From assembly GCA_963727775.1 (NCBI GenBank), contig CAVSHB010000004.1, forward strand, positions 32,001-96,000: 64,000 nucleotides of DNA, given 5' to 3'. Numbering within the stretch: position 1 is the first letter of the stretch; each line of letters starts with the position of its first letter. Of the stretch, positions 18,360 through 23,633 are shown piece after piece. Made by a program: the position numbers and the translations under genes. Under the pieces are notes generated by a model. That model had not been told where the DNA came from. It ran no database searches and saw only the letters and a list, made by a program, of their open reading frames with translations. The DNA comes from an uncultured Nitrospiraceae bacterium (GTDB lineage Bacteria > Nitrospirota > Thermodesulfovibrionia > Thermodesulfovibrionales > SM23-35).

Positions 18360-18379
18360 TCCTAAAACAAATAAAATAG

Positions 18380-18515
18380 TGCAGATGTTGTGAAAAAATT
18401 ATTTTTCGATACCTTAGTGTACCTTAAGAAATTATTTGAGGATTATTTTATGAATGCCGCGATAAAGATATTTTAAATATATTCATCGAGATATAATTTT
18501 TGAACAATGTCTGCA
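18380..18515. repeat. MITE-like element family A, copy 1 (136 bp)
   Basis: Imperfect TIRs tgcagatgttgtgaaaaaattat / ataatttttgaacaatgtctgca; diverged inverted copy at 47261-47402. Confidence 0.75.
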
Positions 18516-18544
18516 TTATTTGTGCTGATTGATAAGGAGGTCTT

Positions 18545-19906: not shown

Positions 19907-19987
19907 CAAAAGCTCACCAATGCTGCAGTGCAGAATTTGTCTGCTGCCTAACGCGTCTCAACTGGTCCGTCACGCGAAGTACAGCCA

Positions 19988-20073
19988 TTATGTGGAGTTC
20001 CCCGTTATGTGAAGTAAACCTTGCAAGTATATGAATCACAATAATTATCGCTCAATCTACTTCACATAACGGG
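19988..20073 (-). repeat. Probable terminal recombinase-binding array of a RIT-like element
   Basis: Perfect 16-bp IR cccgttatgtgaagta (20001-20016) / tacttcacataacggg (20058-20073) plus a third ttatgtggagt copy (19988), just past the recombinase stop. Confidence 0.65.
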
Positions 20074-20078
20074 TAGGC

Positions 20079-20380
20079 TTACAGTGATTCAAGCCAGCCT
20101 ATGATATCATTGTTGTGTTTGATAAGATGCTGCAGGTTCTCGACCTTGCATGCTGGCGCACAAGTCGAAAGGGCCTTACGTTTCATCTCAAGATCGATTT
20201 CCACATATGCATGGGTAGTATCGAGATTGACATGGCCGAGCCAGTTTTTGATTACAGTGAGATCAACCCCCGACTGGAGCAAATGCATAGCCGTTGTGTG
20301 GCGGAACGTATGGGGGCCAACTTTCTTTTTAGCGAGACTGGGACATTGCTCTGTGGCGGCAGAAATTCGCGCCCGGATTA
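20079..20380 (-). pseudogene. C-terminal fragment of a tyrosine recombinase (RitC-like), truncated by the adjacent element
   Basis: Frame reads ...CPSLAKKKVGPHTFRHTTAMHLLQSGVDLTVIKNWLGHVNLDTTHAY (HxxR, LGH, Y); cut at 20381. Confidence 0.88.
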
Positions 20381-20465
20381 TGTGCTAACGACCAGATAAT
20401 GATACCAAAGATTTGAGGAAATAGGGTGACACTCCAAGTTTAGGTTAACGAAAGGAGTGTCATAG

Positions 20466-22028
20466 ATGGAACCAGCAGAGGGTGTACAAAAGAGCAGTAC
20501 AAAGAGGAAGTTTCCGAAGCGAAGCAATCGTTACGGGCCCGATTTCAAGCTTCAAATAGTCAAGAAGTACGTTGAGGAGAGCGTTCCCGTTCCGGTGATC
20601 CGGCAGGAATGCGGAGTGAGCAGTAATTCGGTAAGACGCTGGGTACGTGCCTATCGTCGTGAGGGCGAAGCCGGACTATCGATGAGGTACACCGGTAAGG
20701 GACGCAGCCTTCCCACTCCAGTGAAAGAGAAGATCGTCGAAATCAAAGAAGGCAACCCGCTTTTCGGTATCAAGCGCATTTCGCAACTATTAAAGAGAGT
20801 GTTTTTCCTTTCCGCCAGCCCTGAGACGGTCCGTAAGACACTGCATGAATCATCCCTCATGACGGCCCCACCCAAGAAGCGGCAGCGTAATATTACCCGT
20901 CCCCGGTTTTTCGAGCGATCAACACCGAACCAGCTTTGGCAGACGGATATCTTTACGTTTCGACTTGGGGGCCGCTATGCGTTTCTGATCGGCTATATAG
21001 ACGATTATTCCCGCTACATAACGGGGCTTGAGCTTTTCCGCAGCCAAACGGCGCAGAATGTTATAGAGGTATACCGTCGGGCGGCCTCCGAGTACAACCC
21101 GCCCAAAGAGATGCTTACGGATAATGGGCGGCAGTATACGAGCTGGCGCGGCAACAGCCGCTTCGAACTGGAGTTAAAGAAAGACAAAATCCACCACATC
21201 AAATCGCAGCCTCACCACCCGATGACATTAGGGAAGATAGAGCGATTCTGGAAGACGATTTTTCTGGAGTTCCTAAGCCGAGCCCAGTTCGGTAGCTTTG
21301 AAGATGCGGTTGAGCGGATACGTCAGTGGGTGAAGTATTACAACCATAAAAGGCCGCATCAGGGTATCGGCGGCTTGTGTCCCGCAGACCGGTATTTTGA
21401 GATCCAGAGCGAGCTTAGAAAGACCATCGAGCAGGGCATCCAGGACAACCTCCTTGAGATGGCGCTAAGGGGCAAGCCGCGCCTGCCGTTTTACATGGTG
21501 GGCCGGATGGAGGGGCAGTCGGTGGTGCTGCGTGCGGAAAAGGGCAGGCTGAGGTTGTCGGTTGACGCCGAAAACGACGACATTACGCAGGAAGTAGTTT
21601 ACAATCTAAATGAGAAAGGACATGACAATGGAGAAGACGGAGAAGATAAAGAGCGAGAAGAAGCGGCAGCCGATGAACTACGGGGCAATGGAAAAGTGCA
21701 AGGCGGTACTGTCTGTATGGACGGAGAGGCGCAGACCGGCGGAGATATGCCGGGAGCTGTCGATCCCCTGGATGGCGCTTGCGCACTGGCAGAGGCGGGC
21801 AATGGAGGGGATGCTCCAGGCGCTGGAGCCGAGGGTGAGCCTGGACAGGGGGCCAGCGCTTTCTCCCCGCTTGCAGGCGTTGCTGGAGAAGAAGCGTCTG
21901 ACGCTCTTGACGAGCACAGTGCAGGGCAGACTGGAAAGGACGCTATCAAAGGCACAGGAAGCAAGGAAAGCGGAGACGCCTCAGTCGAAGGAGATAAAAC
22001 CCTCCGGCGAAGCCTTGCGGAAAACTGA
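20466..22028 (+). CDS. IS481-like DDE transposase (HTH-HTH-rve) with acidic low-complexity tail
   Basis: PNQLWQTD, IDDYSR, TDNGRQY, GKIERF, YNHKRPHQG. Confidence 0.88.
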   Translation: MEPAEGVQKSSTKRKFPKRSNRYGPDFKLQIVKKYVEESVPVPVIRQECGVSSNSVRRWVRAYRREGEAGLSMRYTGKGRSLPTPVKEKIVEIKEGNPLFGIKRISQLLKRVFFLSASPETVRKTLHESSLMTAPPKKRQRNITRPRFFERSTPNQLWQTDIFTFRLGGRYAFLIGYIDDYSRYITGLELFRSQTAQNVIEVYRRAASEYNPPKEMLTDNGRQYTSWRGNSRFELELKKDKIHHIKSQPHHPMTLGKIERFWKTIFLEFLSRAQFGSFEDAVERIRQWVKYYNHKRPHQGIGGLCPADRYFEIQSELRKTIEQGIQDNLLEMALRGKPRLPFYMVGRMEGQSVVLRAEKGRLRLSVDAENDDITQEVVYNLNEKGHDNGEDGEDKEREEAAADELRGNGKVQGGTVCMDGEAQTGGDMPGAVDPLDGACALAEAGNGGDAPGAGAEGEPGQGASAFSPLAGVAGEEASDALDEHSAGQTGKDAIKGTGSKESGDASVEGDKTLRRSLAEN

Positions 22029-22038
22029 GAAACCGTAG
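21628..22038 (+). CDS. Small HTH protein overprinted (+1 frame) on the transposase 3' end
   Basis: AAGGA RBS before ATG 21628; KAVLSVW...AEICRELSI...HWQRRAMEGM aligns by eye with the next HTH ORF. Confidence 0.7.
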   Translation: MEKTEKIKSEKKRQPMNYGAMEKCKAVLSVWTERRRPAEICRELSIPWMALAHWQRRAMEGMLQALEPRVSLDRGPALSPRLQALLEKKRLTLLTSTVQGRLERTLSKAQEARKAETPQSKEIKPSGEALRKTEKP

Positions 22039-22182
22039 CGTAGAGACATCCTAATAATGGGGCAAGGCAGAAAACGGGTGATGGTTAAATATGGACCGAG
22101 TTGAGAAAATCGATTGTAGGGCTTCTGAGGAAGGCGATTTTCTCTCAATCCGAAGATTTTTAGTTGTTAAAGGGAGTGTGCT

Positions 22183-22569
22183 ATGAGCGACTCAAAGGAT
22201 AAGGAGCGTGCCCGCCAAAGAGCAGCGGTGGTGTTTGCCGTGCGCAGCGGCCAGATAACAGCCGAGGAGGGTGCGCGCCGACTGGGCGTGTCCCGCAAGA
22301 CCTACTACGAATGGGAAAGCCGGGCATTACAGGCGATGACAGAAGCCATGGAAAACAAATCTGCCGGCAGACCGAACATGCCGCAGGACGAGGAGAAGCA
22401 GCGTTTACAGGAGGAGGTTACCGAACTCCGGAAGAAGTTGTTTGTCGCTGAAAAGACGGTAGAAGTGCGGGATATGTTGCATGCGTATGAGTTGCAGAAT
22501 GCCGGTGATAAGAAAAGCGTCCCGACAAATCGGGAGGAAAAAAAACGAAAGCAAAGGAAGAAACGATAA
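22183..22569 (+). CDS. HTH + coiled-coil protein (IS3 OrfA-like)
   Basis: AEEGARRLGVSRKTYYEW HTH; LQEEVTELRKKL zipper; GGGAG RBS; A8 run near the 3' end. Confidence 0.85.
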   Translation: MSDSKDKERARQRAAVVFAVRSGQITAEEGARRLGVSRKTYYEWESRALQAMTEAMENKSAGRPNMPQDEEKQRLQEEVTELRKKLFVAEKTVEVRDMLHAYELQNAGDKKSVPTNREEKKRKQRKKR

Positions 22570-22574
22570 CTCGT

Positions 22575-23618
22575 ATGCTTGCCATGATTGACCAGATCAG
22601 GGAGAGGACCGGGATGCCCTACAGAGCGATCTGCTATGCCGTAAGACTGCCCTACCCGAGTTTTATGCGGTGGCGCATACGGCGCAAAAAAGATACGCCC
22701 TTGGTGCGGCAACCTGGTCCTCCCAAGGTCAAGCCACCGGATTTTGGCAAGATTGAGCAGGATATAGCACAGTTATCTCACGGGCACAATCGCACGCAGG
22801 GAACCGGGGCGTTATATGTTCGCTACGGATCCACCGTATCAAGGCGGAAGCTGCATACAATGGTAGCAATGGCGCGGCACGATCTCAATACCTACCATCG
22901 TCAGAATCTGCGGCGCATCCGCTGGAACGTGCCGAACGTCGCCTGGTCCATGGACCCCTGCGAATACGAACAGCGTGACGCAACTGGTGCAAAGGTATAC
23001 CTGAACCAGATGCAAGATCTCGCGTCACGCTATAAGTTTAATCCCATGACGGGAGAAGTTCCCTGCGGCGAAGAGATATCCGGCTATCTTGCGGCAACCT
23101 TCAATCGGTTTGGAGCACCCCTGTTCCTAAAACGGGACAATGGAGGTAACCTCAATCATGCAGCTGTCAATGACGTGCTTGCCGATTATTTTGTCCTACC
23201 GGTGAATAGCCCGGTCCATTATCCGCCTTATAACGGTGCGATCGAAGAGGCGCAAACCGAGCTGAAAAATGGGCTTGCCGCTAAGCTCTCGTACAGGCCC
23301 TTTTGCCCACGAGAACACATAGAGGCATACGCCTCGACGGTTGAGCATGATCTTAATCACCAACCTCGTCCGTGCTTGAACGGTAACAACGCCTGCAGGG
23401 TGTACTTCATCGGAAAAAGAGCTTTTTCCAAATGGGAAAGGAGGGATGCCTATGTTTGGATAACGACCTTGCAGAGTGATATACTTTGCAGTGAAGGGGT
23501 TCAGCCCCAGGCGGCTTGGCGCATCGCCGTGGAGGCATGGCTGAACATGAAAGGCTTTATTACGATTACGATTAATGGAAAAGTGTTACCCAATTTTTTC
23601 TCATTTCGGTATCATTAA
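22575..23618 (+). CDS. Second DDE integrase-core transposase (OrfB-like)
   Basis: WSMD...QDLASRY...RDNGG-x-YNGAIE with D(35)E spacing; stop lies inside the right TIR. Confidence 0.82.
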   Translation: MLAMIDQIRERTGMPYRAICYAVRLPYPSFMRWRIRRKKDTPLVRQPGPPKVKPPDFGKIEQDIAQLSHGHNRTQGTGALYVRYGSTVSRRKLHTMVAMARHDLNTYHRQNLRRIRWNVPNVAWSMDPCEYEQRDATGAKVYLNQMQDLASRYKFNPMTGEVPCGEEISGYLAATFNRFGAPLFLKRDNGGNLNHAAVNDVLADYFVLPVNSPVHYPPYNGAIEEAQTELKNGLAAKLSYRPFCPREHIEAYASTVEHDLNHQPRPCLNGNNACRVYFIGKRAFSKWERRDAYVWITTLQSDILCSEGVQPQAAWRIAVEAWLNMKGFITITINGKVLPNFFSFRYH

Positions 23619-23633
23619 CTCTTGGCGTGCACA

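Follow-up and report, generated by a model that had tools for sequence, protein, structure and literature searches.

An insertion sequence-sized transposon with two different DDE transposases and no target site duplications

Introduction

Why would a single small transposon encode two different transposases? The question is raised by a 64,000-nucleotide stretch of DNA from an uncultured Nitrospiraceae bacterium (assembly GCA_963727775.1, contig CAVSHB010000004.1, positions 32,001 to 96,000), called the window here, in which all positions below are counted unless a contig is named. At 20381-23633 it contains an element with two DDE (Asp-Asp-Glu) transposases, A and D, and two helix-turn-helix (HTH) proteins, B and C. 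An earlier note, made from the sequence alone, took this to be one transposon in which the two enzymes divide labour, either between left and right end or between excision and integration.

DDE transposases and retroviral integrases are homo-oligomers that join both ends of an element across one target site (partly general knowledge; PMC10045372, PMC11406308; papers are cited here from excerpts of their text). That is why target site duplications (TSDs) exist.

The element is a real, active-looking, widespread and autonomous single transposon of the size of an insertion sequence (IS). As far as sequence can tell, the data favour a division between left and right end over one between excision and integration.

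The element and its four genes

The source genome (G000) consists of 3.43 Mb on 4 contigs. These hold 4 full copies of the element and no half copies. All four copies are 3253 bp long, run from TGTGC to GCACA, and vary at one base (21801), which alters the tail of A and is silent in B. The borders drawn by the earlier note are therefore exact at both ends. Its single pair of imperfect terminal inverted repeats around four open reading frames (ORFs) is borne out as well, with repeats of about 55 bp. All genes lie on the + strand in the order A, B, C, D (Table 1). The note had called the four frames and both catalytic triads intact, and all of these could be mapped. Its two dissimilar DDE cores, D-39-E in A and D-35-E in D, also stand, and HHalign confirms with 96% probability that B and C are paralogs. 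For the spacer between B and C it had reported no end motif; inside the window element there are just loose matches with 2 mismatches. The lack of a TSD, the position of B wholly within the open frame of A, the N-terminal HTH of D and the A8 run do not figure in the note.

Table 1 Features of the two-DDE element and its flanks in the window.
Feature	Position	Strand	Details
Whole element, TGT...ACA, no TSD	20381..23633	+	4 copies one base apart; 65 complete elements have these ends
Left end: outer left-specific segment TGTGCTAACGACCAG, then TAATGA at 20397 and GGGTGACAC at 20424, motifs shared with right end	20381..20435	+	T6, A7, C12, C13, A14 invariant in 44/44 distinct left ends
ORF A: IS481-like DDE transposase; two HTH, rve core D161/D219/E259, predicted C-terminal beta domain, acidic tail	20466..22028	+	Pfam rve, HTH_32, HTH_Tnp_1; NF033577 215.6 bits (cut-off 224)
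Tail of A, aa 376-520, net charge -21, mostly overprinted in -1 frame of B	21591..22025	+	Kept open, selected for acidity at wobble positions of B
ORF B: OrfA-like HTH protein, 142 aa	21610..22038	+	+1 to A in 84/84 elements; dN/dS median 0.21
B-C spacer carrying ribosome site of C, no end motif	22039..22182	+	Long only in small subclade; folds no better than shuffles (z 0.62)
ORF C: OrfA-like HTH protein, 128 aa, paralog of B	22183..22569	+	Pfam HTH_28, HTH_Tnp_1; dN/dS median 0.14
A8 run, C and D frames both open: predicted slippage site for C-D fusion	22538..22545	+	A7-9 run in 70/70 elements
ORF D: second DDE transposase; N-terminal HTH, integrase core D127/D188/E224, helical C-terminus	22575..23618	+	Retroviral-integrase profile matches; model; alignment to A
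Right end: variable outer segment TGTGCACGCCAAGAG, then shared inner motifs	23579..23633	-	47 distinct right ends, positions 6-15 variable
Left flank, outside element: first 395 bp of 3158-bp three-tyrosine-recombinase (RIT-type) element, cut at junction	19986..20380	.	Intact copy G000:C3:341995-345152
Right flank, outside element: 3' part of CCG/VTT-domain gene, 5' part missing from genome	23634..25019	+	Match to NF045663 (759 profile positions) begins at 446

A is 520 aa long and D 347 aa, with the last codons of D overlapping the right end. The two align with 19% identity over 256 columns. The N-terminal HTH is part of this alignment, which makes D a full paralog of A and not a bare OrfB. 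A scores 23 bits against NF033587, and its structure model (predicted local distance difference test, pLDDT, 65) retrieves IstA first in Foldseek, followed by TnsB. D has no Pfam match and weak IS481 and IS3 scores (NF033577 40.4 bits; NF033516 35.7, cut-off 160). A profile built from 55 D proteins matches retroviral integrase cores (best E 4e-10), and the D model (pLDDT 87.7) finds intasomes and, in eighth place, IstA.

B probably starts at ATG 21628, which is preceded by AAAGGA. The long spacer after it is confined to L008, L031, L111, L115, L116 and L143 (L numbers denote loci), with weak look-alikes elsewhere in the genome. A hairpin in this spacer was considered and rejected, as shuffled sequences fold just as well. 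A scan for promoters and terminators stayed at chance level.

The run of seven to nine adenines near the end of C could, by its sequence, fuse C to D. Only 14 such runs occur in 144,318 control bases. D is in phase -1 relative to C in 56 of 70 elements and +1 in 14, with both frames open in all. This means that transcriptional slippage would fit as well as ribosomal frameshifting.

Relatives

A scan of genome contigs seeded with D gave 78 loci, in records from Nitrospirota, Desulfobacterota groups, Elusimicrobia, Verrucomicrobia, Victivallales and Chromatiaceae. D was partial at 12 of them and the upstream DNA too short at 19, which leaves 47 that could be judged. Full A, B and C with an intact D were found at 37 of these, and a full A with a broken D at 2; the rest had a split or frameshifted A (4), a partial A (3) or no A (1). 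B and C were present at 47/47.

The metagenome scan seeded with A used the best 80 of 486 matches. Fifteen had less than 1 kb downstream and 65 were judged. B, C and D were present at 64 of them, D being intact in 52, cut by a contig end in 11 and broken in 1. The lone exception, L170, is truncated. Co-occurrence of all four genes, which the earlier note had proposed as a check, thus holds at 64/65 A-seeded loci and, counting at least part of A, at 46/47 D-seeded loci. The note had named two outcomes that would speak against one element. Neither turned up: A-B and C-D were not found among the scanned loci as separate elements with their own ends, and frequent decay of one enzyme was not seen, with D intact in 52 of the 53 A-seeded loci where no contig end cuts it and A full-length in 39/47 D-seeded loci.

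The order of the four genes is constant at 26-49% minimum identity. One search found 2068 relatives of D and a second one 1167 cluster representatives; most are called hypothetical, and the nearest Atlas clusters are unnamed. With no Pfam match for D and more than 2000 relatives, the element family is widespread yet hidden. No D relatives were found in viral contigs, phages or plasmids, and the best plasmid matches of A, among the matches listed, reach at most 31%.

Full loci numbered 84, of which 70 were kept after removal of A-core duplicates, L140 (a stop in A) and L056 (a duplicated B). In these 70 elements, D161/D219/E259 of A and D188/E224 of D never vary, and D127 is conserved in 69, the remaining one having an ambiguous base. 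Purifying selection acts on all four genes, both triads included. Median pairwise ratios of nonsynonymous to synonymous substitution (dN/dS, about 235 pairs) are 0.10 for A and 0.15 for D; those for B and C are in Table 1. The A proteins have a median identity of 63%, the D proteins one of 38%. D has just 24 invariant positions and evolves about twice as fast as A. The trees of A and D agree: 31/67 splits are in common, there are 2 conflicts among 24 x 22 well-supported splits, and the patristic correlation is r 0.88. No natural A-D fusion was found in 6862 longer candidates, which is a weak test.

One relative, L040:3816-6062, has lost most of A through an internal deletion; its 2247 bp include both ends, B, C and an intact D, and it has no TSD. 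L191 and L192 (G320:C5:333463-333813 and G320:C2:188366-188695) are similar decayed relics in which a piece of A adjoins a right end. They lie inside a larger duplicated context and have no left end. L048 and L049 are two copies that face each other with their right ends inward, about 3.4 kb apart, and flank another rve-like transposase; this is a possible inside-out composite.

Ends

The two ends form imperfect inverted repeats, each about 55 bp long, with the common motifs TAATGATACC and GGGTRACAC, at a 1-bp offset. The inner motifs, T.ATGA at 17-22 and GGTRACAC at 44-45, are common to both ends. The outer 15 bp differ: on the left, five bases at 6-14 are invariant (44 distinct ends), whereas the right end varies at 6-15 (47 distinct ends). 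The base adjoining the element is rarely A (3/54 and 5/54 at the two ends).

True internal ends are absent from the window element and from the 84 relatives. Thirteen internal end-motif flags were raised among the latter, of which 12 are the right end itself and one is a loose match inside C.

Target sites

The earlier note had expected TSDs, and there are none. Both ends are present in 65 elements, 55 of which have 20 nt of flank on each side; these represent 54 distinct sites. The longest direct match between the flanks is 0 nt at 41 sites, 1 nt at 11 and 2 nt at 2. Permuted flank pairs give 38.6, 10.3 and 4.0, so the matches are at chance level. An earlier site list held one 3-nt match (L060). 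Long TSDs are also absent: among all sites with such flanks, one 8-mer is shared within 60 nt of both ends, and it lies off the junction.

A blunt insertion would also leave no duplication, and here the genes on either side should continue across the element. Gene continuity was examined at 48 sites. Seventeen are informative (the window, L079, L081, L004, L010, L027, L028, L029, L032, L062, L064, L122, L133, L140, L141, L145 and L163), and in none does the gene continue. Blunt (0-bp) insertion is thereby rejected at 17/17. In the window, homologs of the CCG/VTT gene in relatives extend upstream, and of that part the source genome holds just a 70% paralog.

The matching halves might have ended up beside other copies. 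Across six multi-copy genomes, 1/80 ordered flank pairs shared 6 nt. A TSD split between copies was rejected for this pair (L028/L026), because joining the two flanks does not rebuild the methylase as known from its homolog. No missing gene halves were seen beside other copies in these genomes. Flank synteny in other genera is too broken to size the deleted segments. Many of the cut neighbour genes are themselves mobile, probably because deletions are tolerated there.

In genome G321, three of five copies (L002, L004, L032) abut genes for TniB-like ATPases or rve integrases, which belong to another transposon type. This may be a target preference or a survival bias.

The overprinted tail of A

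The reading frame of A continues through B. In the 84 loci A has 504-643 aa in all but the aberrant L056. Its stop lies at most 40 nt before that of B in 70/70 elements, and up to 401 nt beyond it; the tail crosses the B-C boundary in 42/70. If the overlapped sequence is redrawn synonymously, the median probability per element that the frame of A remains open is 0.0075.

The tail is also acidic. In the window its charge of -21 compares with net charges of +27 for the core of A, +14 for B, +9 for C and +16 for D. The net acidity is 0.098, versus 0.003 in stop-free redraws; it is higher in 69/69 elements, with a median z of 2.5. C provides an internal control: where it lies under the frame of A, the acidity exceeds that of redraws in 39/42 elements, versus 4/28 where it is free of that frame. 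Four control stretches in D and in the core of A have median z of 0.0, -0.45, 0.27 and 0.92. The tail of A is thus selected to stay stop-free and acidic.

This argument rests on the position of A's stop plus the redraw tests. Stop-creating T3 under A occurs in 0/1476 cases, a count that is partly circular and was set aside as evidence. Since C lies under the A frame in some elements and outside it in others, the acidic overprint brings its own control and is a clean bacterial case of dual coding. The stop of A is near the start of D in 25/70 elements and near that of C in 19/70.

How the element might move

The reading preferred here, to which we give somewhat less than an even chance, is that there is one enzyme per end and that the two ends would be joined to the target at separate, uncoupled sites. 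No TSD would then form, and the DNA between the sites would be deleted or rearranged. A, encoded beside the conserved left end, would act on that end. D, encoded into the variable right end and perhaps made as a C-D slippage fusion, would act on the right. This assignment is suggested by gene position and by the pairing of the conserved left end with the conserved enzyme; a preference of transposases for acting in cis is documented for IS911 (PMC5009743). B and C would bind the shared inner motifs. The acidic tail of A would exist as part of the protein and bind basic B, C or D, or mimic DNA, tethering or damping the complex, and the stop of A, often at the start of C or D, would couple their translation. 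One enzyme per end would account for the two triads, the unequal outer ends, the unrelated flanks, and a rise in copy number without TSDs or matched flank pairs.

A bolder claim, which we regard as doubtful for now, is that the element represents a new class of transposon. Its two DDE paralogs would both be obligate, each in charge of one end and inserting it independently of the other; each jump would replace host DNA, and the overprinted acidic tail would tune the process. An element that depends on two different DDE enzymes, leaves no TSD and lies between unrelated broken genes would offer genomes a new way of losing and rearranging DNA. It would also be a natural end-specific pair of transposases in which to study how end recognition and target capture are coupled, with possible use in directional or replacement integration.

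Absent TSDs can have another origin. Both enzymes might be needed in one concerted heteromeric transpososome that works through a replicative Shapiro intermediate as in IS26, with TSDs separated or erased by frequent intramolecular events, mostly short-range deletions. This is the strongest alternative, and we consider it rather unlikely. In its favour, excerpts of PMC4471558 report no abutted TSD in 70 copies of IS26, and unmatched flanks at over half. The model of A is closest to IstA and TnsB, which cut 3' ends only, there is no TnsA-like or resolvase gene within the element, truncated genes at the junctions are the expected scar, and truncated single ends exist. However, under this model the copy number can go up only by events whose trace is a matched flank pair or an abutted TSD, and about 16 matched pairs are expected (for the 22 copies of the six genomes, with one copy subtracted in each genome). 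At most one is seen, and it fails the gene test. Nor is there an abutted TSD of at least 3 nt at any of the 54 sites. Several deletions per inversion would be required at every copy, though the copies are otherwise near-identical. It is a quite unlikely proposition that the work is instead divided by step, with a C-D fusion similar to IS3 OrfAB copying out a circle, and A, with B, integrating it or repairing it into breaks. C-D does have the layout of OrfA/OrfB, the conserved A-run and the D-35-E spacing. In IS3 elements OrfA and OrfB are indeed fused by frameshift (PMC5009743), and IS481 and IS5 insertions without TSD have been observed at deletion or duplication junctions (PMC11708052). Yet D, unlike OrfB, comes with a start codon and an N-terminal HTH of its own. 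No head-to-tail junction of the ends was found in 64 genomes, at element loci or at the contig joints of four sequencing runs, although these are weak tests. Integration of a circle by a DDE dimer should moreover yield TSDs.

It is very improbable that the element is two adjacent or nested ISs, one like IS481 and one like IS3, or one real transposase with a dispensable passenger; two independent ISs are close to excluded. Each half does resemble a complete IS gene set, and A or D is lost at a few loci (L040, L057, L066, L170). Against this, there are no internal ends, the gene order holds over all the divergence given above, the trees are congruent, both triads are invariant, and the tail of A is overprinted over the B-C boundary in 42/70 elements. 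The losses are single, broken copies.

Several points weigh against one enzyme per end as well. IS26 has a single enzyme and also lacks abutted TSDs in the 70 copies, through replicative intramolecular events, which means that their absence requires neither two enzymes nor uncoupled ends. The assignment of A to the left and D to the right is based solely on gene position and end conservation. The genome of L040 has no full A, which does not suit an obligate pair, although L040 is one single copy. The stop of A is near the start of C or D in just 44/70 elements. The flank verdicts were made by eye from Pfam matches and frame lengths, L122 and L145 have no family match, and L024, L039 and L121, outside the 17 informative sites, have long open frames on both sides. 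The surviving copies sit in dispensable DNA and are a biased sample. Finally, the pairs and elements behind the dN/dS values and counts are not phylogenetically independent.

Neighbouring repeats

The intact RIT-type element (L082) has three tyrosine-recombinase-like ORFs and inverted ends of 31-35 bp. Its remnant in the left flank of the window and another at G000:C4:175513-177078 are each cut by the left end of a two-DDE element, at 395 and 1592 and on opposite sides. Short internally deleted RIT-type versions of about 380 bp are found at C2:570937-571319 and C1:20592-20970.

At 18361-18520 of the window, between a cytochrome gene and a dihydrolipoamide-dehydrogenase-like gene, lies a repeat of about 150 bp; the source genome and relatives contain many further copies of it at 70-87%. 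It is probably a miniature inverted-repeat transposable element (MITE) or like a repetitive extragenic palindromic (REP) element. Another repeat, of about 155 bp, at L082:4444-4600 (G000:C3, about 345440-345600), has dozens of 80-92% copies on all four contigs.

Comparison with known systems

A full-text literature search, which left most subscription journals outside its reach, found no description of an IS with two DDE enzymes. Judging by excerpts, two works that contain the phrase "two DDE transposases" (PMC4701971; 10.1101/2022.06.24.497495) are unrelated. Judged on the literature, the element is apparently undescribed; it may be listed in ISfinder or TnCentral.

IS481 elements normally have a single transposase ORF. 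The present element resembles them in its TGT...ACA ends of about 50 bp, in the HTH-HTH-rve layout of A, and in a near miss of A to NF033577. It differs in its second DDE enzyme, two HTH proteins, length of 3.0-3.3 kb, lack of a TSD, and an A with an extra C-terminal domain and acidic tail. The terminal inverted repeats of IS481 are TGT...ACA (PMC11406308), and its TSDs measure 2-15 bp, mostly 6 bp (PMC10045372). The IS1202 group has TSDs of 5-6, 15-17 or 24-29 bp (PMC10045372), none of which occur at the sites of the two-DDE element.

With IS3 it shares a C-D pair similar to orfA-orfB with a candidate slippery A-run, the D-35-E spacing and TG...CA ends (PMC5009743, PMC11708052). D however has its own HTH and start, the phase is +1 in 14/70 elements, and there is an extra full transposase plus HTH gene. 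According to excerpts of the same papers, IS3 has one DDE domain and a TSD of 3-5 bp, versus two DDE domains and no TSD here.

IS26 and the IS6 family likewise have copies without abutted TSDs beside truncated genes, but IS26 encodes just one transposase, and its copies show many 8-bp flank pairs that match (PMC4471558), against at most 1/80 pairs here; the 23 bits of A against NF033587 are also a low score. IS21 comes to mind through IstA, which ranks first for A and eighth for D in Foldseek; the element differs from IS21 in having two DDE enzymes, no IstB ATPase and no TSD.

In Tn7-like elements, TnsA is an endonuclease of another fold. They too have two catalytic proteins (TnsA and TnsB), TGT/ACA ends, unequal ends and a disordered C-terminal extension of the DDE enzyme (PMC11406308). 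The element described here differs in having two DDE paralogs, in lacking the 5-bp TSD, and in being far smaller; inside its ends no ORF or family match corresponds to an AAA+ ATPase (TnsC or IstB) or a target selector. For each of IS481, IS3, the IS1202 group, IS21 and the Tn7-like elements there are defining features that it lacks.

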